IMG/VR virus record: IMGVR_UViG_3300047445_000186
Location: 129,829 to 193,828 of that record
Strand: one strand, 5' to 3'
Source: a virus
Length of the DNA: 64,000 bases
The position numbers were made by a program, and so were the translations under genes. The first letter of the stretch is position 1. Every line of letters starts with the position of its first letter. Under the pieces are notes generated by a model. That model was given only the letters and a program-made list of their open reading frames with translations. It had not been told where the DNA came from and did no database searches. Shown here piece after piece: positions 8,408 through 59,019 of this stretch.

Positions 8408-9502
8408 ATGAAAGTTTACTTAGTTGGTGGCGCAGTTCGTGATAAGTTGATGGGACTTCAGCCGAAGGACCGAGATTGGGTTGTGGTTGGCGCCACTGAA
8501 GCCGATGTTCAGAAAATGTTGGCGGATGGTTACACGCAAGTGGGGGCAGACTTTCCGGTCTTCCTCCACCCAGAGACGAATGAAGAGTACGCGCTTGCTC
8601 GCGTTGAACGCAAGAACGGCGTTGGGTACCACGGTTTCACCGTGCAAGCCGATGCATCCGTGACGATCGAAGAAGACCTGGCCAGACGCGATCTGACCGT
8701 GAACTCGATGGCCATGGACGACGATGGCAAGATCATCGATCCTTTCGGGGGTCTCCGGGATTTGCGAAATGGCGTTCTGCGGCACACGACCGAGGCATTC
8801 GCTGAAGATCCTCTTCGCGTTCTTCGCCTTGCTCGCTTCGCTGCTCGACTCCCTGCATGGCGCGTCGACGAAAGCACGAAAGCGCTCTGTTGGAAGCTCG
8901 CGTCTGAAGGTGAGCTGAATCACCTCTCGATCGAACGGATCTGGGCCGAGTTGGAGAAGGGATTCGCCGCGAAGAACCCAGGCCGCATGCTCGAAGTTCT
9001 CGAGCGGACTGGTGCTCTCCTGTTCTGCGACACTCTGTCGGCCGTGTTCGGCCCTGGTCTCGAAGACTCGGCGTTCAAGGTCTTGAACACCTTGGCTGCG
9101 GTGCCCCAGGAGAAACGATTCGCGGCCTGTGTAGGAGCTATCGCTCTTCCAGACAGTGATCTCCCGGGCGCATCGGCACGTGTCCGTGAGTGCCTGAAGA
9201 ACGTGACTGCCCTGAGGAACGCGAAGTTCACGTGCCACGATCTGGCCGAGGTCTTGAAGCGCTCTCGTGCTCTTGGCGAAGGTCCAGCGTTCAGCGACTT
9301 CTTGTCGGCAGTCGTTGCGATCGAGAGTGCTGGAACTCGACTGCCGTTCTCGATGAAGCAGCTCGCCTTGGCCGCGCACATCATGAAGGGCGTGAAAGCG
9401 ATCCAGTTCCCTGGTATCGTCGGGAAAGCTCTCGGTCAGGCGATCGAGAACCAGCGAGTCCAGAACCTCCAACAAGGCTTGAACATCCCGATCAACGTGT
9501 AA
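8408..9502 (+). CDS. cca: CCA-adding tRNA nucleotidyltransferase (class II, head/neck/body; HD region degenerate)
   Basis: MKVYLVGGAVRDKLMGLQPKDRDWVVVG, DFPVFLHPETNEEYALARVERK and RDLTVNSMA are near-identical to the bacterial CCA enzyme catalytic head. The 364-aa length and absence of the His-Asp HD signature suggest no phosphohydrolase activity. Confidence 0.9.
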   Translation: MKVYLVGGAVRDKLMGLQPKDRDWVVVGATEADVQKMLADGYTQVGADFPVFLHPETNEEYALARVERKNGVGYHGFTVQADASVTIEEDLARRDLTVNSMAMDDDGKIIDPFGGLRDLRNGVLRHTTEAFAEDPLRVLRLARFAARLPAWRVDESTKALCWKLASEGELNHLSIERIWAELEKGFAAKNPGRMLEVLERTGALLFCDTLSAVFGPGLEDSAFKVLNTLAAVPQEKRFAACVGAIALPDSDLPGASARVRECLKNVTALRNAKFTCHDLAEVLKRSRALGEGPAFSDFLSAVVAIESAGTRLPFSMKQLALAAHIMKGVKAIQFPGIVGKALGQAIENQRVQNLQQGLNIPINV

Positions 9503-23472: not shown

Positions 23473-24060
23473 ATGAAAGCACGCCAAACTACCATTGCAG
23501 ATCGTCCCCAGATTGAAGCGATCGTGAAGTCTAACCCGAAGATGTACGGAGCTGACATCACTCGGTATCACAGCATCACGATCCATCGATTCGTTGGGCA
23601 CGTGGTTGGCGATCTGGCGAAGACTGCATGGTGTGTCGAAGACGACGAGGGTCAGATCGTCGGACTGGCGATTCAGTTCTGGTGGACCTCAATGCCGGCC
23701 TGGTCGATTGCCTCTCTGTTCTTCAAGAATGAACCTGGCAAGAATCAGTTCAACGCGCACAAGATTGGCGCCGTCCTGGTGAATGCGATGTGCAAAGAAG
23801 CCGAATCCCGAAAGATGTACGACTTCTACTACGTAGTAAGAGATAATGAATCTCTTCGTAAGAACATGAGCTTGAGCGTGAACGACGAATTCACGGAGAG
23901 GTACGAGATCAACGATCTGTTCCTGCTGCATCCGTACACTTCGCCGATCTACCCGATGTTCAAGAACATGCTCGGACACGTAATTGGGCGGAACCGCAAA
24001 CCAGTGGTTTTCCGCCTTGCATCGCTTAAGAGCAAATATAGGCCGTCTGTATGGGTGTGA
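23473..24060 (+). CDS. hypothetical protein (about 195 aa)
   Basis: ATG 23473. The listed ORF start 23341 would overlap the convergent gene. Confidence 0.45.
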   Translation: MKARQTTIADRPQIEAIVKSNPKMYGADITRYHSITIHRFVGHVVGDLAKTAWCVEDDEGQIVGLAIQFWWTSMPAWSIASLFFKNEPGKNQFNAHKIGAVLVNAMCKEAESRKMYDFYYVVRDNESLRKNMSLSVNDEFTERYEINDLFLLHPYTSPIYPMFKNMLGHVIGRNRKPVVFRLASLKSKYRPSVWV

Positions 24061-25505
24061 ACGTTCTGATCTTCACTTGCGTCTCTGGACGATTGTTCCA
24101 GCGCGCGATTGGAGCGTACCAGGTTGCTGGGTTTCTGCGGCAGCATGGGTACTCAGTGCAGGTCGTTGACTTCACAGACAACTTCACTGAACAGGAATTG
24201 AAGAAGGCCGTCGATCTTTACGTCGACGAGACAACCCTCGCTGTCGGCGTTTCAACCACGTTCTACAGTCATCTCGAAAACAAGTTCATCGCCGCGAAGA
24301 AGACCTTCGACGCGATCATTCCACAGGAACTTGAGAACGCGATCGTGTACTCGAAGGAGAAATTCCCGAAAGTAAAGATCGTTTTCGGTGGTTCGCGATC
24401 ACTGGCAGGCGAGGCAATGCCTTGGGTTGACATGGTCATTCACGGGTACGGTGAAGACAAGTTCCTGACGTACTTGGATGGTCTGTCTGGGCGCGCACCA
24501 AAGATCTTCTCGATCGGCAAGCCCTTGCGCGTGATCATGGACGATCCGCCGAAGAAGCGATTCGACATCCAAGAGCTGAGCCATCAGTTCGCGCCACAGG
24601 ACTTCGTTCTACCTGGTGAAACGCTCCCGATTGAAATCAGCCGTGGCTGTATCTTCAAGTGCAAGTTCTGCGCGTACCCGCTGAATGGCAAGAAGAAGAT
24701 GGACTTCCTTCGTTCCGCTCAGTGCGTTCAGGAAGAGCTGTTGCACAACTACGAGAAGTACGGAACCACGTCGTACTTTATCGGCGACGACACGTTCAAC
24801 GACAGCACATTCAAGCTAGAGGCATTGCACAAGGTAATCACCGAGCTGCCGTTCAAGCCGAAGTTCACGTGCTATCTGCGACTCGATCTGCTGTACGCTC
24901 ATCGCGAACAGATCCAGCTCCTCGATGAGATGGGTCTTGCTTCACCGTTCTTTGGGATCGAATCGCTGAATCAAAAGTCAGCCACCTCGATCGGCAAGGG
25001 CATGAAGACTGGCAAGGTCAAGGATTTCCTACTCGAGCTCTATCACGATCACTGGCGCGGAGAGAAGCCATTCACGTGCTCGTTCATTGTCGGTCTGCCG
25101 CATGAGACCCGTGAAACCGTTCAAGAGACATTTGAGTGGGTGAAGAAGACTGAACTGAGCTCGACGTTCTTTCCGCTGAGCATCTCAATCAAGTCGTTCT
25201 ACCAGTCCGAGTTCAATCGGAACTACAAGGATTACGGGTACGATCTGAAGGATCCAGAGACCGGGTACTGGGAGAGTGAGAATTTCACGCTCGATTCGGC
25301 CACTGAGATTGCCGAGCAGTTCAACAAAGAGCTGATGTACACGAACGATCGGCCGAGCTCTTGGTTCCTGATGACGATGCTGAATCACGGGATGACCCTT
25401 GAAGAGGCACGAAAGGTCTTGGTGAAGGACCTGCCTTGGCCGAAGATTCTGCGGACAAAGCGGGACAAGGTCGCCGAGTACAAAAAGCTTGTTCTGCAGA
25501 GCTAA
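24051..25505 (+). CDS. B12-binding radical SAM enzyme (class B)
   Basis: N-terminal Rossmann-like cobalamin-binding region, then EISRGCIFKCKFCAY (CxxxCxxC 4Fe-4S/SAM motif). Confidence 0.85.
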   Translation: MGVNVLIFTCVSGRLFQRAIGAYQVAGFLRQHGYSVQVVDFTDNFTEQELKKAVDLYVDETTLAVGVSTTFYSHLENKFIAAKKTFDAIIPQELENAIVYSKEKFPKVKIVFGGSRSLAGEAMPWVDMVIHGYGEDKFLTYLDGLSGRAPKIFSIGKPLRVIMDDPPKKRFDIQELSHQFAPQDFVLPGETLPIEISRGCIFKCKFCAYPLNGKKKMDFLRSAQCVQEELLHNYEKYGTTSYFIGDDTFNDSTFKLEALHKVITELPFKPKFTCYLRLDLLYAHREQIQLLDEMGLASPFFGIESLNQKSATSIGKGMKTGKVKDFLLELYHDHWRGEKPFTCSFIVGLPHETRETVQETFEWVKKTELSSTFFPLSISIKSFYQSEFNRNYKDYGYDLKDPETGYWESENFTLDSATEIAEQFNKELMYTNDRPSSWFLMTMLNHGMTLEEARKVLVKDLPWPKILRTKRDKVAEYKKLVLQS

Positions 25506-25839: not shown

Positions 25840-26546
25840 TGCTGTCACTGGATGAAGCTCAACGGGCGCTGATTCTCAAGAAGCTTGCGCCCCTAGGACG
25901 TGTACCTCGGTACGATGCGGAGGCGCAGACCGTCACGCTCTCCGAGACATCAGCACGTCGCTTCATCATTGATGGGACCGCGTGCACCCAGCGGCCGCGT
26001 TCAATCGCGCTCCAGGACCCAAAGGCGTACGATCCGTCTTATCTCGGATTTGGTATTCACGAAGCCCTCAGTGTTCTGATCCAAGACGACTACGCACTGT
26101 ACGCGACTCTGTTCGACACCGTCAGACAGATCGATTCGACAGCAAGCACAATGTTCGGTTCATGCGAGCAGGCGGCGTTGATTCTGTCGCATAATTCATT
26201 CGGTGAAGAGCTGTTCCCGCATGTTCATGCCAGATCGATGATGGACACGCAGACTCTGTCGCTGTTCGTGAATTTGACTGGGACTGACTCAGCAACCCTG
26301 ACGCTATTCGATCCGGTCACTGAAGACTCACGAGTGTTCAAGAACGGATACACCGATCATCGCGTTGTTGCGGTGCACGCTCGGAAAGCCGATCAGCGTG
26401 AAATCAAGATCGAACACGGGTCATTCATCCTGTTCGACGCTGCGAAGACACCACACAAGTTCTCGTACAGCGACGACATCTGGCTCACGTTCGTGTACGA
26501 TCACGTCAATGGAGTCAGAGAAGATGTTCGCGCCAACTCCCTTTAA
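25839..26546 (+). CDS. hypothetical protein (235 aa)
   Basis: TAATG overlap with the upstream gene. Confidence 0.45.
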   Translation: MLSLDEAQRALILKKLAPLGRVPRYDAEAQTVTLSETSARRFIIDGTACTQRPRSIALQDPKAYDPSYLGFGIHEALSVLIQDDYALYATLFDTVRQIDSTASTMFGSCEQAALILSHNSFGEELFPHVHARSMMDTQTLSLFVNLTGTDSATLTLFDPVTEDSRVFKNGYTDHRVVAVHARKADQREIKIEHGSFILFDAAKTPHKFSYSDDIWLTFVYDHVNGVREDVRANSL

Positions 26547-27279
26547 GATCCTTTTCGTTCAGCTCCTGGCATGGATCGGTATTCCGGTCCTGCTTTGGTA
26601 TGGTTCATGGGTGCACATCATCGGCGCCCTGCTGATGTACACACTGTACGGTGGTGCTGGAGTTTCACTGACGTTCCATCGGATCCTGTCGCACGCTGCG
26701 TTCAAGTTGAATCCAATTGTGCGGAAGATCATGATCACGCTTGCGAGCTTCGCGAACGTCGGATCACCAATCACCTGGGTTGCCGTACATCGAGCGCACC
26801 ATCGGTTCGTTGACACTGAACGCGATCCGCATTCACCACATCACATGCCGTTCTGGTACATGATGTTCGGCACGATGTACTCACAAGTCTCGGTGAAGTT
26901 CACTGTCGATCTGCTTCGTGATCCATTCTGTAGGTTCATCCATAAATACTACTTCGCAGTTCAGCTTCCATGGATCGTTCTGCTGTTCTTGCTTGGCGGG
27001 TGGAAAGCCGTTCTTGCGTTCCATCTCGTTCCAGGCGGAATGACATGGCTTGGCGGATCGCTCGTGAACTACTTGAATCATCTACATGGGTACAAACCAT
27101 TCGACGGTCAGGGAACTAGCACGAACAATCTGATCACTGGATTCTTGGTGTTCGGAGAAGGTTGGCACAACATGCATCACGCGAAGCCGACCACACCGAC
27201 TACGAAGCTGAATTGGTGGGAGTTCGATTTGGTTTACCAGATCGGCAGACTGATTGGAACACCAAGGGGCAAGAGATGA
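26524..27279 (+). CDS. membrane fatty-acid (acyl-lipid) desaturase
   Basis: Three His boxes (HRILSH, HRAHHRF, HNMHHA) and TM helices. RBS GGAG 9 nt upstream of ATG 26524. Confidence 0.85.
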   Translation: MFAPTPFKILFVQLLAWIGIPVLLWYGSWVHIIGALLMYTLYGGAGVSLTFHRILSHAAFKLNPIVRKIMITLASFANVGSPITWVAVHRAHHRFVDTERDPHSPHHMPFWYMMFGTMYSQVSVKFTVDLLRDPFCRFIHKYYFAVQLPWIVLLFLLGGWKAVLAFHLVPGGMTWLGGSLVNYLNHLHGYKPFDGQGTSTNNLITGFLVFGEGWHNMHHAKPTTPTTKLNWWEFDLVYQIGRLIGTPRGKR

Positions 27280-28393: not shown

Positions 28394-29422
28394 ATGGAAC
28401 CGAAACTTCTGACACGCGATGCCTTCCGAGAAGGTGTGTTCGCACGGGACAAGCACAAGTGCGTGTTCTGCAGCGAGCCTGCTCAGGACGCGCATCACAT
28501 TCTCGAGCGCCGTCTTTGGCCTGATGGCGGGTACTACCTCGAGAACGGCGCGTCTGTTTGCGGTGAGCACCACATTCTGTGCGAGCAGACTGTCATTTCG
28601 GTCGAGCAAGTTCGCGATGCATGTGGCATTCGCCAACCGCACGTTCCTCCGCATTTCTACCCAGATCACCAGTACGACAAGTGGGGCAACCCTCTGCTCG
28701 ATGGTGGCAAGCGCGGTCGTGGTGAACTGTTCTTCGACGAGTCAGTCCAGAAGGTCCTTGGCCAAGGTGGCGTGCTCGATCTGTTCACGTTGTACGCGAA
28801 GTACGGACGGACGTTCCATCTGCCATGGTCTCCTGGCATTCACGACGATGACAAGGCGCTGAAGGACTGCACACAGTTCGAAGGTAAGCGCGTGATCATG
28901 TCGCTGAAAGCCGATGGTGAGAACACCACTGGGTACTCGGACGGGCACATTCATGCTCGCTCGATTGACAGCCGAGGCGGTGAAGATCGCGCTTGGGTGA
29001 AGCAATTCCTGTCTGAGAACGTGTGCTACAACTTGCCTGAAGGCTGGCGAATCTGCGGTGAAAATCTGTGGGCCGAGCACTCGATCAAGTACAGCGACTT
29101 GAAATCGTACTTCTACGGCTTCAGCCTGTGGAATGAACGGAACGTCTGCCTCTCGTGGGACGAGACGATCGAGTATTTCGCTCTGTTAAACGTCACTCCA
29201 GTCGACGTGCTCTATGACGGTATCTGGGACGAGGCTGCGATCAGGAAAATCGAGAAGACGCTTGATCTTGAGAAGGTTGAAGGGTACGTGATCCGACTCG
29301 CTGAAGCGTACCCGTACAGCCAATTCAAGAGCTCGATCGCGAAGTTCGTCCGACCCGGGCACGTACAGACATCTAAGCATTGGCGGGCAGGTAGCCGCTT
29401 CACACCGAACAAACTAGCATGA
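28394..29422 (+). CDS. HNH zinc-finger nuclease domain fused to Rnl2-like ATP-dependent RNA ligase
   Basis: N-terminus CVFCSEPAQDAHHILERRLWPDGGYYLENGASVCGEHH is an HNH motif. Then nucleotidyltransferase motif I SLKADGEN, motif IV VEGYVIR and motif V KFVR, as in T4 Rnl2-type ligases. Confidence 0.7.
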   Translation: MEPKLLTRDAFREGVFARDKHKCVFCSEPAQDAHHILERRLWPDGGYYLENGASVCGEHHILCEQTVISVEQVRDACGIRQPHVPPHFYPDHQYDKWGNPLLDGGKRGRGELFFDESVQKVLGQGGVLDLFTLYAKYGRTFHLPWSPGIHDDDKALKDCTQFEGKRVIMSLKADGENTTGYSDGHIHARSIDSRGGEDRAWVKQFLSENVCYNLPEGWRICGENLWAEHSIKYSDLKSYFYGFSLWNERNVCLSWDETIEYFALLNVTPVDVLYDGIWDEAAIRKIEKTLDLEKVEGYVIRLAEAYPYSQFKSSIAKFVRPGHVQTSKHWRAGSRFTPNKLA

Positions 29423-37353: not shown

Positions 37354-37700
37354 GACCTTCACGCGAACAAACCTTGAAGTTTCGAGCAAGTTCGCTAAAT
37401 ACAAATGTCCTGAAGTGATGTCGCAGAACATCGATCGTGATCCCGAAAGTGATTACACAAAGATCGAGAACATGTTACATTACTTCTATCGACTCTAACG
37501 AGTCACCAAACTAATTCATTCAGAAACACTTCGGTAGCACAACATGAACACCGCACGCATGATCAATACGAATCGATTCTGGCAGCAACGCCAGACGTTC
37601 GATCGTGCATGCGAGATGAAGCATGAGATTGATACCAAAGGAACGCCCCAGGTAGGAGGCTCGACGGAAACGCTCTAAGCGAACCGAAAAGCAAACCAAA

Positions 37701-37730
37701 CCTGGGGAACTACGAAAGTGGTTCCCCAGG
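37701..37730. promoter_or_regulatory. 10-bp perfect stem-loop (CCTGGGGAAC / GTTCCCCAGG) in the leader upstream of the tRNA array
   Basis: Seen directly in the sequence. Confidence 0.4.
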
Positions 37731-37871: not shown

Positions 37872-37971
37872 GCCTCTCGATTCGAGAGGCGTTATTTCAA
37901 AACGTGCAGATAGGATTCCGAGGAAAGCTGAAGGCCAGGATTCGGAGGAAGCAGTACGTTTTGAAATAACG
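37872..37971. promoter_or_regulatory. 19-nt perfect palindrome (GCCTCTCGATTCGAGAGGC), then a 14-nt inverted repeat (GTTATTTCAAAACG ... CGTTTTGAAATAAC) ending at the 5' end of the first tRNA
   Basis: Seen directly. Likely a transcription or processing signal for the tRNA array. Confidence 0.4.
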
Positions 37972-38046
37972 GGTCGTTGACAGAGCGGCAGATGTACCTC
38001 CCTCTTAAGGAGATCTAGCAGGGTTCGACTCCCTGGCGACCCACCA
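37971..38046 (+). tRNA. tRNA-Lys(CTT)
   Basis: Manual fold: acceptor GGGTCGT / GCGACCC, T-loop GGTTCGACTCC, anticodon loop CTCTTAA, CCA encoded. Confidence 0.6.
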
Positions 38047-38051
38047 AACAT

Positions 38052-38162
38052 GCCGAGATAGCACGATGGTCGTGCACTTTATGTAAGAGCGAGTGTCTAC
38101 GGGAAACACGGCACTTGACAGAAAAGAAACGGATGGTGGTTCAAATCCATCTCTTGGCGCCA
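38052..38162 (+). tRNA. atypical long tRNA-like gene (about 111 nt; type II or intron-containing, identity unresolved)
   Basis: Acceptor GCCGAGA / TCTTGGC, D-arm GCAC-GATGGTC-GTGC, T-arm GGTGG-TTCAAAT-CCATC, encoded CCA. About 39 extra nt lie between the D- and T-arms. Confidence 0.35.
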
Positions 38163-38168
38163 AACAAT

Positions 38169-38244
38169 GGGACTTTCGTATAGCTGGTGCGTACGGGAGC
38201 TTGAAAACCTTCAGGAAGCGGTTCGATTCCGCTAGGTCCCACCA
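38169..38244 (+). tRNA. tRNA-Phe(GAA)
   Basis: Acceptor GGGACTT / AGGTCCC, anticodon loop TTGAAAA, T-loop GGTTCGATTCC, CCA. Confidence 0.55.
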
Positions 38245-38248
38245 ATTT

Positions 38249-38323
38249 GCTTCGTTCGACTACCGGTTAGGTCGCTAGCCTTTCAAGCTGGAGAAACGGG
38301 TTCGACTCCCGTACGAAGCACCA
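38249..38323 (+). tRNA. tRNA-Glu(TTC)
   Basis: Acceptor GCTTCGT / ACGAAGC, anticodon stem CTAGC / GCTGG with loop CTTTCAA, T-arm ACGGG-TTCGACT-CCCGT. Confidence 0.55.
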
Positions 38324-38330
38324 GAACAAT

Positions 38331-38409
38331 AGGGTTGAAATCGAAGTGGCACGAGATACATGGCTTTGACCCATGGTAATATCAGGTTCGAGTCCTGACA
38401 GCCCTGCCA
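38331..38409 (+). tRNA. tRNA-Gln(TTG)
   Basis: Anticodon stem CATGG / CCATG with loop CTTTGAC, T-arm TCAGG-TTCGAGT-CCTGA, CCA. Confidence 0.55.
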
Positions 38410-38414
38410 AACAT

Positions 38415-38492
38415 ATCAGCGTCGTCTAAATGGTCTAGGACATCAGACTTTCAATCTGAGCAATGCGGGTTCAACTCCCGTCGCTGATGCCA
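38415..38492 (+). tRNA. tRNA-Glu(TTC) (second copy, different backbone)
   Basis: Acceptor ATCAGCG / CGCTGAT, anticodon stem TCAGA / TCTGA with loop CTTTCAA. Confidence 0.5.
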
Positions 38493-38498
38493 AACAAT

Positions 38499-38573
38499 AC
38501 CTTAGTAGCTCAGTGGTAGAGCACCGTCTTGATAAGGCGTAGGTCGTTGGTTCGATTCCAACTTAAGGTACCA
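38499..38573 (+). tRNA. tRNA-Ile(GAT)
   Basis: GCTCAGTGGTAGAGC D-arm, anticodon loop TTGATAA, T-loop GGTTCGATTCC. Confidence 0.6.
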
Positions 38574-38580
38574 GAATAAT

Positions 38581-38654
38581 GGGACGTTCGTATATGGGTA
38601 TTATGTGGCGCTGTCTACGCTACGAAACGGGTTCGAGTCCCGTACGTCCCGCCA
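38581..38654 (+). tRNA. tRNA-Asp(GTC)
   Basis: Acceptor GGGACGT / ACGTCCC, anticodon stem TGGCG / CGCTA with loop CTGTCTA. Confidence 0.6.
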
Positions 38655-38658
38655 AATT

Positions 38659-38733
38659 CGTGCGGTAGCATTATGGTAATGCGCCACCCTCATAAGGTGT
38701 CCCAAGTGGGTTCGATTCCCACCTGCACGACCA
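38659..38733 (+). tRNA. tRNA-Met(CAT) (or Ile2/initiator; CAT anticodon)
   Basis: D-stem GCAT / ATGC, anticodon loop CTCATAA, T-arm GTGGG-TTCGATT-CCCAC. Confidence 0.55.
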
Positions 38734-38744
38734 AGTGTCCTTTG

Positions 38745-38818
38745 CTCCGGTGTAGCTCAGCGGTAGAGCAGCTCGCTGTTAACGAGTTGGTCGTTGGTTC
38801 GATCCCAGCCTCCGGAGC
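38745..38818 (+). tRNA. tRNA-Asn(GTT)
   Basis: GCTCAGCGGTAGAGC D-arm, anticodon stem GCTCG / CGAGT with loop CTGTTAA. No CCA encoded. Exact 5' end uncertain. Confidence 0.5.
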
Positions 38819-38833
38819 AAAGAACATTTCTAT

Positions 38834-38928
38834 TCCCCTGTACTCTAATTGGTAAGAGACCTGGCTGTTAACCAGACGTAAAGGCCGTAAGGCGTAATAT
38901 GCAAGTTCGAAGCTTGCTGGGGGAGCCA
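38834..38928 (+). tRNA. type II (long variable arm) tRNA, anticodon loop CTGTTAA; isotype unresolved
   Basis: 95 nt. Acceptor TCCCCTG / TGGGGGA, T-arm GCAAG-TTCGAAG-CTTGC, variable arm of about 24 nt, CCA. Confidence 0.4.
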
Positions 38929-38978
38929 AGATTAAGAAACCTTACTCACGCGGTCACTCGCGGTCCCGTAGGGTTTAT

Positions 38979-39054
38979 GCGCGGTTAGCTCAGTTGGTAG
39001 AGCAAACGACCGATAATCGTTAGGTCGCTGGTTCGAATCCAGCACTGCGCACCA
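38979..39054 (+). tRNA. tRNA with GAT-like anticodon (loop CCGATAA, C33; Ile-like, identity uncertain)
   Basis: Acceptor GCGCGGT / ACTGCGC, GCTCAGTTGGTAGAGC D-arm, T-loop GGTTCGAATCC, CCA. Confidence 0.5.
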
Positions 39055-39062
39055 CAAATTAT

Positions 39063-39139
39063 GCCTCTTTAGCTCAACTGGATAGAGCACTGGCCTACGA
39101 AGCCGGGGGTTGCAGGTTCGAATCCTGTGAGAGGCACCA
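39063..39139 (+). tRNA. tRNA-Arg(ACG)
   Basis: Anticodon stem CTGGC / GCCGG with loop CTACGAA, T-loop GGTTCGAATCC, CCA. Confidence 0.6.
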
Positions 39140-39214
39140 GAATATTCCGACCGTCAGTGCAAGGTTATCCTTCTACGATTCCCCCTTGCGCGATCTCTTT
39201 GTCGGACGAAACAT

Positions 39215-39288
39215 AGGTCCTTGGTGTAATGGCAGCATGACGGTCTCCAAAACCGTTCGTGGGGGTTCGAGTCCCTCAGGACCTGCCA
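39215..39288 (+). tRNA. tRNA-Trp(CCA)
   Basis: Acceptor AGGTCCT / AGGACCT, anticodon stem ACGGT / ACCGT with loop CTCCAAA, T-arm GGGGG-TTCGAGT-CCCTC. Confidence 0.6.
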
Positions 39289-39357
39289 AGATAACGGTGC
39301 GTTTAGGAACGGACGCTTAATTGCCAACCCCACATAATCTGGCGGCCGAATAACAAT

Positions 39358-39432
39358 GTGCACTTGACAGAATGGTAATGTCGCTGGCTGCAACCCAGTT
39401 GTTCGGGGGTTCGATTCCCTCAGTGCACTCCA
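39358..39432 (+). tRNA. tRNA-Cys(GCA)
   Basis: Acceptor GTGCACT / AGTGCAC, anticodon stem GCTGG / CCAGT with loop CTGCAAC, CCA. Confidence 0.6.
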
Positions 39433-39588
39433 ATTACGACAGGAGCAAGGCGCCCTCGGGCTTGTGGCTAGCTGTGGAAAGTGACCCTCCACCTCCAACG
39501 TCGTTCCAATCAAAGCTTCGTCGTTCCATTCACACGGGTACGCGACTCCGTTTCTCGCAAGAGGTGCAGGGCGAAGCAACGCAATTAT

Positions 39589-39661
39589 AGGTGAGCCAGC
39601 GGCGCTGGACAAGAGCATCCAAAGCTCGAAGTTGGTAGTTCGACTCTGCCATCGCCTGCCA
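39589..39661 (+). tRNA. atypical tRNA-like gene A of a tandem pair (compact D-arm; anticodon loop ATCCAAA)
   Basis: Leader AATTATAGGTGA shared with the next copy. T-arm GGTAG-TTCGACT-CTGCC, encoded CCA. D-region is only CCAGCGGCGCTGG. Confidence 0.4.
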
Positions 39662-39666
39662 ATTAT

Positions 39667-39738
39667 AGGTGATCCATGGGCCGTGGACATGAGCCTCCAA
39701 AACTCGTTGGGACAGTTCGACTCTGTCATTGCCTGCCA
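39667..39738 (+). tRNA. atypical tRNA-like gene B of the tandem pair (anticodon loop CTCCAAA)
   Basis: Same architecture as copy A: AGGTGAT..., D-region CCATGGGCCGTGG, T-arm GACAG-TTCGACT-CTGTC, CCA. Confidence 0.4.
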
Positions 39739-39747
39739 AAATTTATG

Positions 39748-39822
39748 GTGTACGTAGTGTAGTGGTCTGCACCCTAGGCTGTGAACCTGGTAGTGGGAGT
39801 TCGATCCTCCTCGTACACCCCA
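39748..39822 (+). tRNA. tRNA-His(GTG)
   Basis: Acceptor GTGTACG / CGTACAC with an extra encoded G-1 and C73 discriminator. Anticodon stem CTAGG / CCTGG with loop CTGTGAA. Confidence 0.65.
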
Positions 39823-39827
39823 GAATA

Positions 39828-39903
39828 TGTTGCCTCGTGATATGGAAATCGCCCCTGGCTCTGACCCAGGTGGATGACGGTTCGATTCCGTCCGGGGTTG
39901 CCA
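39828..39903 (+). tRNA. tRNA-Gln(CTG)-like (acceptor stem poorly paired)
   Basis: Anticodon stem CCTGG / CCAGG with loop CTCTGAC, T-arm GACGG-TTCGATT-CCGTC, CCA. The 5' acceptor strand does not pair well. Confidence 0.4.
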
Positions 39904-39908
39904 AATAC

Positions 39909-39983
39909 GCCTTGTGAGTGAATGTGGAGAGCACAGCGGTTTCGTATTCCGCAGGACGCAGTTCGACTCTGCGACAAGGCACC
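39909..39983 (+). tRNA. tRNA-Thr(CGT)-like
   Basis: Acceptor GCCTTGT / ACAAGGC perfect, T-arm CGCAG-TTCGACT-CTGCG, anticodon region GCGG-TTTCGTATT-CCGC. Confidence 0.45.
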
Positions 39984-39991
39984 AGAATTAT

Positions 39992-40064
39992 TGGGGTATG
40001 ACATGGACGTTGGCCTGGGCTTTGACCCCGGTGCCGGTCGGTTCGATTCCGACTACCCTTGCCA
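39992..40064 (+). tRNA. tRNA-Gln(TTG)-like (imperfect acceptor)
   Basis: Anticodon stem CTGGG / CCCGG with loop CTTTGAC, T-arm GTCGG-TTCGATT-CCGAC, CCA. Confidence 0.4.
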
Positions 40065-40067
40065 AAC

Positions 40068-40145
40068 ACCGCATTAGCTCAACTGGATCAGAGCGTCGCA
40101 CTCCGAAGGCGACAGATGTGGGTTCGAATCCCATGTGTGGTACCA
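40068..40145 (+). tRNA. tRNA-Arg(CCG)
   Basis: GCTCAACTGGATCAGAGC D-arm, anticodon loop CTCCGAA, T-arm GTGGG-TTCGAAT-CCCAT, CCA. Confidence 0.55.
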
Positions 40146-40152
40146 AAATTAC

Positions 40153-40228
40153 GCCGTCATAGCTCAGTTGGTAGAGCAGTTCCTTGGTATGGAGAAGGTC
40201 AGGGGTTCGATTCCTCTTGACGGCACCA
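40153..40228 (+). tRNA. tRNA-Thr(GGT)
   Basis: Acceptor GCCGTCA / TGACGGC, GCTCAGTTGGTAGAGC D-arm, anticodon loop TTGGTAT, CCA. Confidence 0.6.
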
Positions 40229-40420
40229 GTTTAGCACATGCTCGGCATGATAACACAGGGTCATTGATCCGGACATGTTCGATCTGCGGTCTGACGTAGG
40301 AGTACGGCAAAGACAAGCTCGGAACGGGAACTCCCATGTGCTGATTCATTACTTGAAAGGAGCGCGTAATGCGTACGTCAGTTTCGACGCCTAGCGCGTC
40401 TGGTAAACGCCATACACTTT

Positions 40421-40496
40421 GGGTGTATGGCGTAAAGGTTAGCGCATCGGGCTTTTAACCCGTAAGGTCAGAGTTCGACTCTCTGTGCACCCACCA
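40421..40496 (+). tRNA. tRNA-Lys(TTT)
   Basis: Acceptor GGGTGTA / TGCACCC, anticodon loop CTTTTAA, T-arm CAGAG-TTCGACT-CTCTG, CCA. Confidence 0.55.
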
Positions 40497-40582
40497 ATCT
40501 GAAGGCCTGCTCGAGAAATCGCGCGGGCTTTTTTCGTTACATCAACGCGGTGATGTTACAACTCGGGTTGTACAATGCAATC

Positions 40583-43782: not shown

Positions 43783-43859
43783 GCCTCTGTAGCACAACTG
43801 GATAGTGCAGCCCTCTTCTAAAGGGTCCGTTGTAGGTTCAAATCCTATCAGAGGTACCA
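43783..43859 (+). tRNA. tRNA-Arg(TCT)
   Basis: Acceptor GCCTCTG / CAGAGGT, D-arm GCAC-AACTGGATA-GTGC, anticodon stem GCCCT / AGGGT with loop CTTCTAA, T-loop GGTTCAAATCC, CCA. Confidence 0.65.
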
Positions 43860-49076: not shown

Positions 49077-49103
49077 CGCTGCAGAAATGCAGCGCTGCTT
49101 TCG
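49077..49103 (+). terminator. stem-loop CGCTGCA-GAAA-TGCAGCG followed by a CTGCTTTCG terminator-like element
   Basis: Seen directly, 46 nt after the stop at 49030. Confidence 0.5.
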
Positions 49104-49530
49104 AACCGAAGATAATGGGTTATCGGCTAAGTTTCCCACTATCATCTCTTTGTTCGAGCATTTTAGCAGCCTCTTCAACACTTACTTCAATCTCATTCAG
49201 CCGCAGCAAGTTGGTTATCAACTACTACGACCTGGACCGTCCGCCCTGTAGAAACACTAAACTCTCTACTGGGTAACCCGTTGACTCCTCTGGTTATTGG
49301 AGCGCCTCGCCGAGAGGGCAGACTTTTGTCTGAAGATCGGCTGATGTTGCAAGTACAAGGAACTTGATCGGATACCGCAACTTAAATCGCGGTGTAGGCG
49401 GAGCCCATGCTCGAAAGAGATACTCTGCTGAAGTCTCCAACAGCAATTTTTGCTGGATGGGATTGTAGTAAGTGCTGTCACGCGCCTTTGTTCACTGCGC
49501 TAAAGTGAACCGATAATCAGGAGAGAACTC

Positions 49531-51150
49531 ATGAACATGTACACCGACCACGCCGCTTCTCTGAACGCCGTTCAGACTTCCACCCCACAGACGGAAGCAA
49601 TTCCTGGCCGCGAAGCCGAGATGAAGCTGAACAACGCTGGTGGATTCACGTTCACTCTTGATCAGTGGGGCGTCCTCGATCGCTTCATCATGATCGGTTC
49701 CGAGAACGGGAACTACTACGTCGGTCAAAAGGACGTGATGAAGCAATCGTTCGCGAACACCCTGAAGTGTATCGCTGAAGACGGTCTGCGTGCTGTCGCT
49801 CGTGCTCTCGAGTACTCAACCTCTGGTCGCGCTCCGAAGAACGACCCTGCTCTGGTTGTGCTCGCGCTCGCCGCATCGAAGGGAACGCCTGAAGTTCAAT
49901 CCGCTGCTTACGACGCCCTGCCAAAGGTCGCTCGTACCGGTACCCATCTGTTCACGTTCGTCTCGATTCTGAACTCCCTCGGGAAGTGGAACGCCGCTGC
50001 AAAGCGCGGCCTGGCGAAGTGGTACACGAACCGTTCGATCGACAAGCTCGCGATCCAAGTGCTGAAGTACCAGCAGCGCAATGGCTGGTCGCACCGCGAC
50101 GTCCTGCGTCTGGCACACGTGAAGCCGCAGAACGACATCCAGACGAATCTGTTCAAGTACATCACGAAGGGTGGCGACGCTCTCGTGCAAGGCTCGCCGA
50201 TTCCGCAGCTCGTGATCGACTTCGAATTCCTGAAGCGCGCCGAGTCGGCCAAGGATGTCGTTCGTCTGATCGAGTCGAATCCATCGATCGCATGGGAACT
50301 CGTTCCTACGCAATTCCTGAAGGATCCGGACGTGCTGATGGCGCTCCTCCCTTCGATGGGCATGACCGCTGTGATCCGTCAACTGGGTAAGCTCACTGCC
50401 GCTGGCGTGATCAAGCCGATGTCGGAAGGCGAGAAGTTGGTCGTCGCGAAGCTCTCGGATGCCGAAGCAATCAAGCGTGGCCGTGTCCATCCGATCACTA
50501 TCCTCCAAGCCCTGAAGCAGTACCAAGCTGGTCATGGTGAAAAGGGTTCGTTGGTCTGGTCTCCAGTTCAACGCGTCGTGTCGGCCCTGGATGACTCGTT
50601 CTACTCTGCGTTCACGCTTGGCGAGGACAAGAAGGAGAATCACTTCATCGCTTGCGACATCTCCGGCTCCATGACCATGGACAGCGCGAAGGTGATCGGT
50701 TCGCCGAACCTCTTGGCTGGTGAAGTGGCTGCGGTGTTCGCGATGGCGATCGCTCGTACCCAATCGAACTATTTCCTCGCTGGTTTCAAGCAGAACTTGG
50801 AACCACTGAAGATCTCGCCGACGATGCGTCTCGCTGACGCGTTGAACGCAATGCGTGCTATGCACTGGCAAGGCGGCTCGACCGACTGTGCTAAGGCATT
50901 CGAGTACGCGCTCCAGAACGGTATCGCGGTGGACAAGTTCACCGTGATTACCGACAATGAAACGTACGCGGGTGGCCAAGCCCCAGTGCAGGCGCTCAAG
51001 AAGTATCGTGACCGTACTGGTCGCGCTGCGAAGTCGATCGTGATTGCTACCTCGGTATCTGAATTCACGATCGCCGATCCGAAGGACGGTGGTATGTTGG
51101 ACATCGCAGGGTTTGACTCGGCTGCTCCACAGATCATCGCTGATTTCTAA
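49531..51150 (+). CDS. rsr: Ro60/Rsr-like protein (TROVE-type N-terminal region + C-terminal vWA domain with MIDAS)
   Basis: 539 aa. MIDAS DxSGSM (IACDISGSMTMDS) about 385 aa in, then T and D positions as in Ro60. RBS AGGAGAG. The large helical N-terminal domain was not verified. Confidence 0.55.
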   Translation: MNMYTDHAASLNAVQTSTPQTEAIPGREAEMKLNNAGGFTFTLDQWGVLDRFIMIGSENGNYYVGQKDVMKQSFANTLKCIAEDGLRAVARALEYSTSGRAPKNDPALVVLALAASKGTPEVQSAAYDALPKVARTGTHLFTFVSILNSLGKWNAAAKRGLAKWYTNRSIDKLAIQVLKYQQRNGWSHRDVLRLAHVKPQNDIQTNLFKYITKGGDALVQGSPIPQLVIDFEFLKRAESAKDVVRLIESNPSIAWELVPTQFLKDPDVLMALLPSMGMTAVIRQLGKLTAAGVIKPMSEGEKLVVAKLSDAEAIKRGRVHPITILQALKQYQAGHGEKGSLVWSPVQRVVSALDDSFYSAFTLGEDKKENHFIACDISGSMTMDSAKVIGSPNLLAGEVAAVFAMAIARTQSNYFLAGFKQNLEPLKISPTMRLADALNAMRAMHWQGGSTDCAKAFEYALQNGIAVDKFTVITDNETYAGGQAPVQALKKYRDRTGRAAKSIVIATSVSEFTIADPKDGGMLDIAGFDSAAPQIIADF

Positions 51151-55540: not shown

Positions 55541-57499
55541 ATGTCAGCTCTCAAGTCTCTCTCGGCGAAATACGCAGAGAAATTCGCAGCACCGGAAGTC
55601 ATGTCGCTCGAAGCGTACCTGGACCTGTGCAAAACCGAACCTCTGGCATATGCCACCGCCGCAGAGCGGATGGTCGCAGCCATTGGCCAACCTGTTGTGG
55701 TTGACACGTCGGAAGACCCACGTCTCTCGCGCATCCACAGCAACAAGAAGATCCGCACGTACGATGCATTCAAGGAATACTACGGCGGTGAAGATCAGAT
55801 CGAACGTCTCGTTGCGTACTTCCGCAATGCAGCCGCAGGTCTGGAAGAATCGAAGCAGATTCTGTACCTGAAGGGTCCAGTCGGCGGCGGGAAGTCCAGC
55901 CTGGTCGAGCTCCTGAAGGCTCTGATGGAAAAGCACCCGTTCTACGCTCTGTACGATGCGAGCGAAAAGGATGCGGAACTGCGGACCTCGCCAGTGTTCG
56001 AATCGCCGCTCGGTCTGTTCAACAAGCACGACCCCGATCACCAAGCGGTTCTCGCTGACTCGGGCATCCCAGTGGGCTACGCTGGTCAAGCAGTTCTGTC
56101 GGGCTGGGCACTGAAGAAGCTCGAAGAATTCGGCGGCGACATCACGCGTTTCAGCGTCGTGAAGCTCTGGCCGAACAAGGACACGCAAGTCGGCGTGATG
56201 AAGGTCGAGCCGGGCGACGAGAACAACCAAGACGTCTCTGTGCTGGTCGGCAAGACTGATCTGCGGAAGCTCGAGAAGTTCAGCCAGAATCACCCGTACG
56301 CTTACACATACGGTGGTGGTCTGAATCGCACGAACCAAGGCCTGATGGACTTCGCCGAAATGTTCAAGGCGAACATCAAGACGCTGAACCCGTTGCTGAT
56401 GGCTACGCAAGAGCACAACTACAACGGTACCGAAGCGATCCCAGCGATGCCTTACACCGGCATTATCTGCGCGCACAGCAACGAGTCCGAGTGGTTCGCG
56501 TTCAAGAACAACAAGACGAACGAAGCGTTCCTTGACCGTGTGTACATCGTGGACGTGCCGTACTGCCTCCGCGTCGACGAAGAAGTGAAGATCTATCAGA
56601 AGCTGATCGCGGGCTCCTCGCTCTCGAAGGCACCGATGGCTCCGTACACTCTCGAGCTGCTCGCTCAGTGGATGGTTCTGACTCGCCTGAAGGAGCCAGA
56701 GAACTCGACGCTGATGGCGAAGATGAAGGTCTATAACGGCGAGAACGTGAAGGACACGATGCCGAACGCAAAGCCGTACGAAGAGTACCGCGATGCTGCC
56801 GGGAACGACGAAGGTATGAGCGGCCAAAGCACTCGATTCGCGTTCAAGATCCTGTCGCAATCGTTCGATCTGCGCCCTGAAGAACAACAGGCAAACCCTG
56901 TGGATCTGATGTACGTGATCGACGCCGCGGTCAAGAAGGAATCGCTGCCGGAAGAAACCGAGAAGAAGCTCCTGACGCTGATCAAGGATCTGCAACGGAA
57001 GTACTTCGATTTCCTCGAAAAGGAACTGCGCGCTGCCTACCTCGACTCGTTCAACAGCTTCGGCCAGAACATGTTCGATCGGTACTTCCTGTTCGCTGAA
57101 GCCTGGATTGCTGATGAGCAATGCCGCGATCCGGAAACTCATCAGATGATGAACCGCGAGAAGCTGAACGCAGCTCTCGAAGAGACCGAAAAGCCGGCTG
57201 GGATCGTGAATGCCAAGGACTTCCGGAACGAGATCGTGAACTACGTGCTGCGGTACAAGAACAAGCACGACGTCGCTCCTCGCTGGAACGAGTACGAGAA
57301 GATCAAGGTCGTGCTCGAGAAGCGGATGTTCAGCGCAACCGAGAACATCATGCCAGTCGTGTCGTTCGGTCCGAAGGGTGACAAGGAAGCTGAAGAGAAG
57401 CACACGAAGTTCGTCGAGCGCATGATCGAGAACGGGTACAGCGAAAACCAAGTGAAGATCCTGGTGTCCTGGTGGTCGCAAAACAAGAAAGCTGCATAA
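55541..57499 (+). CDS. prkA: PrkA/YeaG-family serine protein kinase (AAA+ N-terminus)
   Basis: AYATAAERM, DPRLSRIHSN and Walker A QILYLKGPVGGGKSSLVELLK are near-identical to E. coli YeaG / B. subtilis PrkA. 652 aa. RBS present. Confidence 0.95.
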   Translation: MSALKSLSAKYAEKFAAPEVMSLEAYLDLCKTEPLAYATAAERMVAAIGQPVVVDTSEDPRLSRIHSNKKIRTYDAFKEYYGGEDQIERLVAYFRNAAAGLEESKQILYLKGPVGGGKSSLVELLKALMEKHPFYALYDASEKDAELRTSPVFESPLGLFNKHDPDHQAVLADSGIPVGYAGQAVLSGWALKKLEEFGGDITRFSVVKLWPNKDTQVGVMKVEPGDENNQDVSVLVGKTDLRKLEKFSQNHPYAYTYGGGLNRTNQGLMDFAEMFKANIKTLNPLLMATQEHNYNGTEAIPAMPYTGIICAHSNESEWFAFKNNKTNEAFLDRVYIVDVPYCLRVDEEVKIYQKLIAGSSLSKAPMAPYTLELLAQWMVLTRLKEPENSTLMAKMKVYNGENVKDTMPNAKPYEEYRDAAGNDEGMSGQSTRFAFKILSQSFDLRPEEQQANPVDLMYVIDAAVKKESLPEETEKKLLTLIKDLQRKYFDFLEKELRAAYLDSFNSFGQNMFDRYFLFAEAWIADEQCRDPETHQMMNREKLNAALEETEKPAGIVNAKDFRNEIVNYVLRYKNKHDVAPRWNEYEKIKVVLEKRMFSATENIMPVVSFGPKGDKEAEEKHTKFVERMIENGYSENQVKILVSWWSQNKKAA

Positions 57500-57576
57500 G
57501 CTAAAGCAGCTCTGAGAGGGTGAAGGCGGAGTGGAGGATATCCCTCCGCCTTCTTTAGTTTCGAACTAGGACAAGT

Positions 57577-58950: not shown

Positions 58951-59019
58951 AGTCACAACCCGGTCTTCGCAAGTACCGGGTTGTTTACTGAATATGATAG
59001 ACTGATCATAAGGACTTAA

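Follow-up and report, generated by a model that had tools for sequence, protein, structure and literature searches.

The tRNA array and its unusual members

The DNA analysed here is a stretch of 64,000 nucleotides (the window) from IMG/VR virus record IMGVR_UViG_3300047445_000186, covering positions 129,829 to 193,828 of that record. At positions 37971-40496, on the plus strand, it carries 24 tRNA-like units arranged head to tail, the number that a first-pass annotation made from the letters alone had given and that the combined modes of ARAGORN return. ARAGORN in its default mode reports 19 tRNAs within the array, together with a tRNA-Arg(UCU) at 43783-43859, and five further units (38052-38162, 38331-38409, 39589-39661, 39667-39738 and 39992-40064) are found with its relaxed, intron and mitochondrial modes. 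A two-strand scan of the window, requiring a perfect 5-bp T-stem, the T-loop motif, at least six of seven acceptor pairs and an encoded CCA, returned, beyond the genes already called by ARAGORN, exactly these five, all of them in the array and on the plus strand. At the gathering score of Rfam family RF00005 (29 bits) 18 of the 24 units pass, with scores of 29.3-70.9 bits, and the six that do not are those beginning at 37971, 38052, 38331 (28.7 bits), 39589, 39667 and 39992. With five units missed by default ARAGORN and six by Rfam, the array does not resolve into standard isotypes with normal scores; and because default finders miss about one fifth of it, phage tRNA complements will be undercounted.

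37971..38046 (+): tRNA-Lys(CUU) with an odd body (3-bp D-stem, 10-nt D-loop); ARAGORN, no RF00005 match
38052..38162 (+): 111-nt tRNA-like gene; ARAGORN -i gives Val(GAC) with a 33-nt insertion
38169-38244 (+): tRNA-Phe(GAA); ARAGORN and Rfam
38249-38323 (+): tRNA-Glu(UUC); ARAGORN and Rfam
38331..38409 (+): tRNA-Gln(UUG), 79 nt, with A8A9, a 3-bp D-stem and a 12-nt D-loop; Rfam 28.7 bits, ARAGORN -mt
38415..38733 (+): second tRNA-Glu(UUC), tRNA-Ile(GAU) (38499), tRNA-Asp(GUC) with U37 (38581-38654) and tRNA-Met/Ile(CAU); ARAGORN and Rfam
38746..38818 (+): type I tRNA-Asn(GUU) with a U6.U67 mismatch, the sole unit without an encoded CCA; ARAGORN
38834..38928 (+): 95-nt type II tRNA-Asn(GUU); ARAGORN, Rfam 45.3 bits
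38979..39054 (+): tRNA-Ile(GAU) with C33; Rfam 70.9 bits
39063-39139 (+): tRNA-Arg(ACG); ARAGORN and Rfam
39215-39288 (+): canonical tRNA-Trp(CCA); ARAGORN and Rfam
39358-39432 (+): tRNA-Cys(GCA); ARAGORN and Rfam
39589..39661 (+): tRNA-Trp(CCA)-like gene 1 with a mini-D-arm, D region CCAGC-GGC-GCTGG then ACA; ARAGORN, in full only in mitochondrial mode
39667..39738 (+): tRNA-Trp(CCA)-like gene 2 with a mini-D-arm, D region CCATG-GGC-CGTGG then ACA; ARAGORN, in full only in mitochondrial mode
39748..40228 (+): tRNA-His(GUG, with G-1), tRNA-Gln(CUG; 39831, U1.U72, reduced D-arm), tRNA-Thr(CGU), tRNA-Gln(UUG), tRNA-Arg(CCG) and tRNA-Thr(GGU)
39992-40064 (+): the tRNA-Gln(UUG) of the preceding group, with U1.U72 and a poor D-arm
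40421..40496 (+): tRNA-Lys(UUU), the last unit, with C39 and C41 in the 3' strand of the anticodon stem; ARAGORN and Rfam

An acceptor stem, a T-arm and a discriminator base are present in all 24 units, the T-arm is perfect in every one and CCA is encoded in 23. The anticodon loop is canonical (7 nt, U33, purine at 37) in all except 38979, which has C33, 38581, which has U37, and 38052, which has no such loop as encoded. Identity elements agree with the anticodons wherever they can be assessed. The tRNA-Gln(UUG) at 38331 has A1-U72, G2-C71, G3-C70 and G73. Several anticodons occur more than once, in a number of cases on genes that differ in structure (Asn, Ile, Glu and Gln(UUG) twice, Trp three times). 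The spacers between units are 4-15 nt long and A/T-rich, with motifs such as AACAAT, AATTAT and GAATAT. Longer spacers are also seen at 39289-39357, 39433-39588 and 40229-40420, as well as between tRNA-Arg(ACG) and tRNA-Trp (39140-39214), where there is a stable hairpin (-20.5 kcal/mol, z = -2.3), with nothing similar in those of the other three that were folded.

The hand folds of the first-pass annotation are reproduced in each of the places where it had reported something irregular: a 111-nt gene with normal arms, CCA and extra nucleotides between the D- and T-arms (about 37 by our count, not about 39), a 95-nt type II tRNA with a GUU loop, a gene with C33 at 38979-39054, and a tandem near-duplicate pair with miniature D-arms and CCA anticodons at 39589-39738. 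Mismatched acceptor stems do exist, as it had said, in four genes rather than two (U6.U67 in Asn 38746, U1.U72 in Gln 39831 and in Gln 39992, and G7.A66 in 39589). To these we add the 3-bp D-stem of tRNA-Lys(CUU), the U37 of tRNA-Asp and the aberrant D-arms of all three tRNA-Gln genes.

Other kinds of element were considered for the same DNA and rejected. ARAGORN -m finds no tmRNA, matches to CRISPR and other Rfam families within the array are weak and fortuitous, and the array contains no genuine protein gene, the 191-aa and 108-aa open reading frames (ORFs) on the minus strand being read-through of tRNA genes. A scan for sigma-70 promoters gave no plus-strand site for the array.

Recurrence of the unusual designs in other phages

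By sequence comparison the 95-nt gene is a member of a phage-restricted family of long-variable-arm tRNA-Asn(GUU). ARAGORN and Rfam agree on its fold, which has a 7-bp acceptor stem, a 4-bp D-stem with an 8-nt, GG-containing D-loop, the anticodon loop CUGUUAA, a 24-nt variable region and a 5-bp T-stem, an acceptor/T-stem arrangement of 7/5. The variable region reads CGUAAAG, a 3-bp stem capped by GUAA, then GUAAUAU and, being longer than 10 nt and containing a stem-loop, it is of type II. An exact pattern representing the D-arm and GUU loop of this gene matches 12 IMG/VR contigs, ten of which carry a long-variable-arm tRNA-Asn, one a form with a 12-nt variable region and one a type I tRNA; among the 32 million contigs of 185,579 species genomes it has only one match, a 2.5-kb fragment of a rumen metagenome-assembled genome with three tandem Asn genes. 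More long-arm Asn genes are present in loci that were fetched by other routes (L013, L024, L032, L052 and L065; L numbers denote the contigs and loci compared with the window).

In an alignment of 13 sequences of this family standard pairs fill 90.4% of cells, compared with 64% when shuffled and 41-52% when the partners are slid, and both sides have changed in 22 of the 24 pairs against a shuffle mean of 12.8; none of 500 shuffles attains the observed covariation values. The GUU anticodon and G73 are invariant and U1-A72 is present in ten of the 13, and the window gene has the full bacterial tRNA-Asn identity set (G34 U35 U36, G73 and U1-A72). Bacterial asparaginyl-tRNA synthetase (AsnRS) and the amidotransferase GatCAB depend on GUU and G73, with U1-A72 serving the amidotransferase route (PMC9976931). 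A subfamily of 95-nt genes (the window, L012/L019, L014, L017 and L020) has a variable arm of fixed form, in which the 3-bp stem covaries as GCC/GGC, GCU/AGC and GGC/GCC under GNRA loops. A type I tRNA-Asn accompanies the type II gene in the window array and in those of at least six other contigs. In its D-arm, in its anticodon stem and where its variable arm begins, the 95-nt gene is nearly identical to an annotated tRNA-Ser(UGA) of Bacillus phage PBC2, and because of this near-identity the type II Asn family may derive from a phage tRNA-Ser. Long bodies are also seen with other anticodons: of the 116 tRNAs in the sampled phage loci that measure 82 nt or more, 39 have anticodons other than those for Leu, Ser and Tyr (Asn, Ile, Thr, Cys, Lys and others), 12 of the 15 Asn genes among these 39 having been selected by the D-arm and GUU-loop pattern.

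The two Trp-like units are 72-73 nt long and have the anticodon CCA in a 7-nt loop, a normal T-arm and a CCA end, with just 16 nt between the acceptor and anticodon stems, consisting of a 5-bp hairpin, a 3-nt GGC loop and ACA. The bacterial tRNA-Trp identity set, G73, A1-U72, G2-C71, G3-C70 and the CCA anticodon (PMC9976931), is present in 39215, 39589 and 39667 alike, with the caveats that A9 cannot be assigned in the mini-D units and that G5-C68 is G.U in 39667. Three double compensatory changes separate one copy from the other. Two of these fall in the D hairpin (G-C to U.G and C-G to G-C) and the third in the T-stem (G-C to A-U), and there are wobble-compatible single changes besides. No homologues of the pair itself were found by blastn against the phage collection, by exact-pattern scans of IMG/VR and the metagenome collection, or by blastn-short against the fetched phage loci.

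The design of the pair can be defined as follows: the acceptor stem leads directly into a hairpin of 12-13 nt (CCNN-NGGN-NNGG), three linker nucleotides come next, and the anticodon and T-arms are normal, for a total of 70-73 nt. Relatives were sought with the T-arm/acceptor scan and with a covariance model built from the pair and one relative, whose hit lists were filtered manually, the model also matching ordinary tRNAs. This yields 14 members in 11 environmental contigs (the window, L001, L009, L020 with three genes, L035, L037, L063, L065, L073, L088 and L101); their D regions measure 14-16 nt and their hairpins covary. The tRNA-Arg genes number eleven and between them account for all five Arg anticodons; a single member is a tRNA-Gln. 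In most of the Arg genes the hairpin loop contains GGA; A20 is a determinant for arginyl-tRNA synthetase (ArgRS), and the A of this GGA may be its counterpart, in which case the determinant is kept. The design is also present in isolated phages, in Bacteriophage DSS3_MAL1 (L121, MN602268.1, 16229-16301) and Mycobacterium phage Phabba (94328-94397), where both genes are annotated as tRNA-Arg; in DSS3_MAL1 the mini-D tRNA-Arg(ACG) lies directly after a canonical tRNA-Arg(ACG) (16146-16301 for the two). Rhodobacter phage RcXuper, Phaeobacter phage MD18 and Ruegeria phage RpAliso have a matching mini-D region that is unannotated. We found no description of this architecture in the searchable literature.

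The smaller irregularities recur as well. The tRNA-Ile at 38979-39054, with the loop CCGATAA, has the highest Rfam score in the array and duplicates the U33 tRNA-Ile(GAU) at 38499. Among 576 ARAGORN tRNAs from the sampled phage loci C33 is present in 16 (2.8%), recurring in Thr(UGU), Gln, Asn, Ile and Pro, and U37 in 12, eight of which, including that of the window, are tRNA-Asp(GUC). The tRNA-Lys(CUU) has a homologue in L091 that is identical apart from three compensatory acceptor pairs; the Ro60 proteins of the two phages are only 55% identical, so the phages are well diverged. In tRNA-Lys(UUU), C39 and C41 stand at the two positions at which the PARIS-resistant tRNA-Lys of T5 differs (PMC12409363).

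Several related observations can be recorded here. The U37 tRNA-Asp(GUC) genes are located in the window (38581-38654), in L001 (3768-3842 and 3900-3974) and in L012, L019, L039 and L049. A 128-nt unit shared by L091 (911-1038, minus strand) and L023 (358-485, minus strand) has a Lys(CUU) anticodon arm, a T-arm and CCA, and carries an insertion of about 55 nt in the D region, a third insertion site in phage tRNAs. Suppressor-type tRNAs (CUA, UCA, UUA) occur in the phage arrays of L003 (8820-8894), L024 (4997-5072) and L044 (584-661).

A further arrangement is seen with the 111-nt unit at 38052-38162. All seven acceptor pairs are formed, the D- and T-arms are normal and the gene ends in G73-CCA, with the anticodon arm replaced by an interrupted hairpin of about 15 bp, made up of CUUU/AAAG, UGU/ACA, a 5-nt bulge, an 8-bp helix and a 12-nt loop. 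The unit is a tRNA whose anticodon arm holds an inserted hairpin, and it can decode only if that hairpin is removed. The ARAGORN -i call is tRNA-Val(GAC), with 33 nt inserted at position 31/32, and one possible reading, which we hold only tentatively, is that the unit is an intron-containing pre-tRNA-Val(GAC) from which an endonuclease would remove the 33-nt hairpin and a phage RNA ligase would seal the ends. Removal of the 33 nt leaves a loop with U33 and A37, ARAGORN finds no other Val tRNA in the window, and an RNA ligase gene is present in the window, with RtcB or RNA ligases in related contigs.

A survey with ARAGORN -i of 1.55 Mb of phage loci, containing 684 default tRNAs, gave 12 insertion-type calls inside arrays, among them cleaner analogues: L065 4595-4700 has Asn features throughout and a perfect CUGUUAA loop split by a 29-nt hairpin, and L009 4432-4534 has a UUCAUAA loop after removal of a 28-nt hairpin. 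The insertion site is nonetheless variable, at 31/32-32/33 in the window and 33/34 elsewhere. The spliced anticodon stem of the 111-nt unit would be weak, with four A-U pairs and an A.A mismatch. An insertion of 33-37 nt is too short for the ribozyme core of a group I intron (about 200 nt or more), no Rfam intron family matches it, and no bulge-helix-bulge motif is seen, the predicted junctions lying in a 1-nt internal loop and inside a helix. We know of no bacterial or phage pathway or splicing enzyme that removes such hairpins. The acceptor stem also speaks against Val, with G73, C3-G70 and G4.U69 in place of the bacterial Val set A73, G3-C70 and U4-A69 (PMC9976931).

A blastn search returned no homologues of the 111-nt unit, and pattern scans for its T-arm gave a single analogue, L024 8698-8792, the remaining matches being mostly ordinary tRNA-Trp, Glu, Gln and Asn. 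The L024 gene shares the T-arm and 3' acceptor end with the 111-nt unit and has no canonical loop in any splice register. The first-pass suggestion that the odd members are decoys or processing substrates may still apply, though to the 111-nt unit only. Separately, tRNA-like units of 118-120 nt on two different contigs (L001 10970-11087 and L019 12764-12883) appear by eye to share an insertion, AAAAG.U.UCCUG.CAAGGA.AC...CAGCAA, between the D-arm and a CCA/UCC-type anticodon arm, a similarity that BLAST did not confirm.

Genomic context and RNA-repair genes

The protein encoded just downstream of the array has an identical copy on a 331,776-bp JGI contig, and the window is from an uncultivated phage of about 332 kb. 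The closest relatives of its PrkA protein in the phage collection include those of uncultured phages of 634-642 kb and of the 344-kb Ralstonia phage RsoM2USA, and a relative on a 524-kb viral contig (L001) has 48 ARAGORN tRNAs in 20 kb. No GenBank phage resembles the array beyond single tRNAs, and searches with the neighbouring cupin and hydrolase genes gave identical copies or unrelated contexts only. Elements that flank the array and genes of RNA metabolism elsewhere in the window are as follows.

213-1013 (+): non-specific DNA/RNA endonuclease
5355-6383 (+): metallophosphoesterase
8408..9502 (+): tRNA nucleotidyltransferase / poly(A) polymerase family protein, a candidate CCA-adding enzyme
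28394..29422 (+): RNA ligase (PF09414)
37544-37678 (+): conserved 44-aa ORF (MNT...TNRFWQ...), upstream of the array
37701-37730 (+): covarying hairpin after the 44-aa ORF, upstream of the array
40505..40534 (+): terminator-like element read from the sequence, a GC-rich interrupted hairpin with a GAAA loop, then six T
43783..43859 (+): solitary tRNA-Arg(UCU), 3.3 kb downstream of the array; ARAGORN and Rfam
49095..49160 (+): Y-RNA-like 66-nt hairpin, about 370 nt upstream of Ro60
49531..51150 (+): Ro60 (Rsr) homologue with TROVE and vWA domains

The RNA ligase, nucleotidyltransferase, metallophosphoesterase and endonuclease, together with Ro60, look like an RNA repair and quality-control set. 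A terminator consensus scan misses the 40505-40534 element, probably since it allows loops of 3-8 nt only. The 44-aa ORF and the hairpin, the latter with compensatory changes, lie directly upstream of tRNA arrays in two phages, that of the window and that of L065 (1-270), and the hairpin may be a terminator or a processing signal. Among other genes, we note a complete PrkA / DUF444 (YeaH) / SpoVR (YcgB) operon at 55541-60564 (+) and auxiliary genes unusual for a phage, all on the plus strand, for a B12-binding radical SAM enzyme (24051-25505), a fatty-acid desaturase (26365-27279), an Asp/Asn beta-hydroxylase (20033-20656) and a YadA-like membrane-anchor protein (10727-11584).

The window has no tRNAs for Ala, Gly, Leu, Pro, Ser and Tyr, and probably none for Val, so the array is only part of the tRNA set of the phage, and the pattern of duplication could change with the whole genome. 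Trp is the rarest codon class, with 1.5% of codons, and AAY accounts for 3.7%; these figures come from a crude gene set and make a weak supply argument only. Since Trp nevertheless has three genes, supply alone does not explain the tRNA set.

Interpretation and comparison with known systems

The odd units are real and under selection, and they are probably functional tRNAs; each oddity belongs to a recurrent phage tRNA design, which argues for function rather than idiosyncrasy. A plausible scenario, to which we give a probability of about one half, is that they are isoacceptors of altered shape that duplicate canonical genes and escape the tRNA nucleases of the host. Transcription would probably give a single precursor that stops at the hairpin and T-run (40505-40534) and is cleaved in the short A/T-rich spacers. 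The majority of units are ordinary elongator tRNAs, and in the others (the type II Asn, the two mini-D Trp, the C33 Ile, the U37 Asp, the odd Lys(CUU) and the three Gln with reduced D-arms) the body would have been remodelled and the parts needed for charging and decoding retained. If these units are expressed, aminoacylated, used by the ribosome and resistant to cleavage, keeping structurally different isoacceptors would let at least one of them escape nucleases or toxins that read tRNA shape or anticodon-loop sequence, and translation would then go on while host tRNAs are cleaved.

There is precedent for part of this scenario in the anticodon arm. Phage tRNAs escape anticodon nucleases through loop mutations (PMC10264068), T5 variants of tRNA-Lys, Thr and Asn neutralise PARIS (PMC11464382, PMC12409363), and evasion of a retron by phage tRNAs has been described (PMC11555353). 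Remodelling of whole domains as a means of evasion would extend this precedent by analogy, and it fits both the duplication of anticodons and the RNA-repair context.

Several points weigh against this scenario. We found no literature linking changes in the variable arm, in the D-arm or at position 33 (C33) to nuclease resistance. The search for a diverged syntenic copy of the array gave only copies that are 100% (L002) and 99.94% (L025) identical to it, and for this reason the evidence of conservation comes from structural classes and single genes elsewhere. The isotypes absent from the window, listed above, count here too. The minimum-free-energy fold of the second Trp-like unit is not a cloverleaf, and the fold z-scores of the odd units are unremarkable. 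The mini-D tRNAs may be poor substrates for EF-Tu and the ribosome: their D regions retain GG in the hairpin loop, and it is uncertain whether this GG makes the D/T-loop contacts. Finally, the long variable arm could clash with the class II AsnRS and attract seryl-tRNA synthetase (SerRS).

The evasion scenario can be joined tentatively, and at appreciably lower confidence, to the idea of tRNA maturation in which large phages systematically rebuild tRNA architecture as a virus-specific camouflage and mature some of the products by a protein-only, cut-and-ligate route that uses phage RNA-repair enzymes. The designs involved would be the long variable arm on Asn (and in other contigs on Ile, Thr, Lys and Cys), the mini-D-arm on Arg, Trp and Gln, and hairpins in the anticodon arm. 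If this were true, it would be a new kind of tRNA splicing in bacteria.

It is unlikely, in our estimate, that the odd units, chiefly the 111-nt gene and the Trp-like pair, are non-translating mimics that act as decoys for nucleases, modification enzymes or synthetases, or as regulators. The 111-nt unit has no usable anticodon loop as encoded, its L024 analogue is in the same position in every register, and three Trp genes are present for the rarest codon class. The T4 tRNA cluster encodes two stable RNAs, C and D, whose function is not known. It has been suggested that viral tRNAs may do more than rescue translation (PMC12409363). The mini-D, type II, C33 and U37 units nonetheless keep 7-nt loops, identity elements and CCA, not all of which a pure decoy would need, and the mini-D Arg genes span all five Arg anticodons, as decoders would.

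Mistranslation or recoding, with the type II GUU tRNA charged by SerRS so that Ser is placed at AAY codons, and other odd units similarly mismatched, seems to us improbable. The 95-nt gene is in part nearly identical to the PBC2 tRNA-Ser(UGA), and there are precedents in allo-tRNAs and, as far as is reported, in nematode V-arm tRNAs. G73 would suit SerRS, which uses the long arm and not the anticodon (PMC5389517, PMC9976931). The family nevertheless keeps U1-A72, G73 and GUU, the Asn/amidotransferase set, and a type I Asn gene usually lies alongside, which suggests backup over a new meaning. G2-C71, a SerRS acceptor determinant, is present in only three of the 13 type II Asn members, and the variable region has a 3-bp stem only, set between conserved 7-nt flanks, whereas the variable stems of tRNA-Ser are longer than 3 bp. 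With AAY at 3.7% of the phage's own codons, misreading would harm its own proteins. The first-pass annotation had also raised suppressor or recoding tRNAs for the odd members, an idea that finds no support here: no array unit has a stop anticodon (CUA, UCA or UUA), and the type II GUU gene and its family keep the Asn identity set.

The first-pass annotation had further proposed that odd members are Y-RNA-like mimics connected with the Ro60 gene, and it is very improbable that they are tRNA mimics bound by, or tethering, the phage Ro60. The Ro60 gene lies 9 kb from the array, and in 8 of 60 related loci an array of at least seven tRNAs lies no more than 10 kb from Ro60; in addition, the extended arm of the 111-nt unit loosely resembles the Ro-binding helix, having a CGA/UUG step, a bulge and another three pairs. 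The strand polarity of this motif is, however, opposite to that in YrlA. No YrlA or Y RNA is detected by Rfam in the window at gathering score; YrlA matches in the array reach at most 24 bits against a gathering score of 69, and each spans the junctions of neighbouring tRNAs, because such junctions mimic the permuted order of YrlA (T-arm, closed acceptor, D-arm). The odd units are open-ended with CCA, and contigs with mini-D and type II genes were recovered independently of Ro60.

A separate candidate lies directly upstream of Ro60, where the 66-nt hairpin at 49095-49160 has the outer motif UUCGAACCG...GGUUAUC...UUUGUUCGAGCA and no tRNA-like domain, unlike bacterial YrlA. It scores 30.4 bits (E = 3e-4 in 561 nt), below the gathering score of 38, against Rfam RF01656, which we take to be a family of nematode Y-RNA homologues. 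The outer motif is kept, with a covarying inner stem, upstream of Ro60 in the three closest relatives (L060, L061 and L063). An Rfam scan of these three loci at E <= 0.05 returned nothing. This hairpin, rather than any member of the array, is probably the Ro60 partner.

There is, finally, a very slim chance that the odd units are pseudogenes left by tandem duplication in a fast-evolving array, as low or absent Rfam scores, acceptor mismatches and repeated anticodons would allow, since compensatory changes separate the Trp-like copies and the Lys(CUU) genes of two phages, each design recurs with covariation in unrelated contigs, and T-arms, CCA and spacing are intact.

Returning to the scenario of reshaped isoacceptors, if the odd tRNAs work, bacterial synthetases, EF-Tu and ribosomes would accept a wider range of tRNA shapes than is now known, orthogonal translation would gain natural scaffolds, and defence nucleases sensitive to the D-arm or the variable region would be indicated. 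Phage tRNAs are by now regarded as weapons against tRNA-cutting host defences, and a functional comparison is with phage tRNAs that escape nucleases. The C33 of Ile, the U37 of Asp and the C39/C41 of Lys(UUU) lie near known cleavage sites, and Lys, Asn and Thr are all present in the window. The documented escapes are point changes in the anticodon arm, whereas in the window whole domains are remodelled, and the array and its relatives suggest a second layer of redesign, in which the elements for charging and decoding stay and the shape of the molecule is altered.

Among tRNAs of unusual shape, the allo-tRNAs and the 8/4 tRNA-Ser and tRNA-His of bacteria and phages (PMC5389517) resemble the 95-nt tRNA in having a long variable arm and anticodons other than those of Ser, Leu and Tyr, and some of them are in phage clusters. 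Allo-tRNAs have an 8/4 or 9/3 arrangement, a long tRNA-Sec-like D-stem with a tetraloop and a likely Ser identity, whereas the 95-nt tRNA has a 7/5 arrangement, a 4-bp D-stem and Asn elements, and falls outside the allo-tRNA class. Mitochondrial tRNAs with a reduced D region are like the Trp-like pair in combining it with a normal T-arm, and ARAGORN makes a full call of the pair only in mitochondrial mode ('D-loop'). The phage mini-D design differs in keeping a defined 3-5-bp hairpin with a GG loop directly after position 7 and a 3-nt linker, and in that any use of it would be with a bacterial translation system. The nematode V-arm tRNAs (nev-tRNAs), associated with the name of Hamashima et al., reportedly join a type II body to the anticodon of a type I family and are charged with Leu, so that decoding is changed. 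They show the same mixture of body and anticodon as the 95-nt tRNA and differ in being eukaryotic and recoding, there being no sign of a changed meaning here.

YrlA and other bacterial Y RNAs are said, on the authority of Chen et al. in 2014, to be bound by Ro60. YrlA (RF02553) has a tRNA-like fold and lies near Ro60, as the array does, but it is permuted, has a closed acceptor and has both its termini in the Ro-binding stem, where the array units are open-ended. The tRNA introns, group I in bacteria and bulge-helix-bulge in archaea and eukaryotes, are like the insertion of the 111-nt unit in being placed in the anticodon arm, where the hairpin pairs with loop residues; the insertion differs in its 33 nt, too short for a ribozyme, in the lack of any visible bulge-helix-bulge geometry, and in its position at 31/32-32/33. 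As a whole, the array is most readily set beside the tRNA clusters of large phages (T4, T5 and the huge phages of Al-Shayeb et al. 2020), with which it shares dense packing on one strand and short spacers, and from which it differs in that about one third of its units depart from the standard cloverleaf, in designs that recur.

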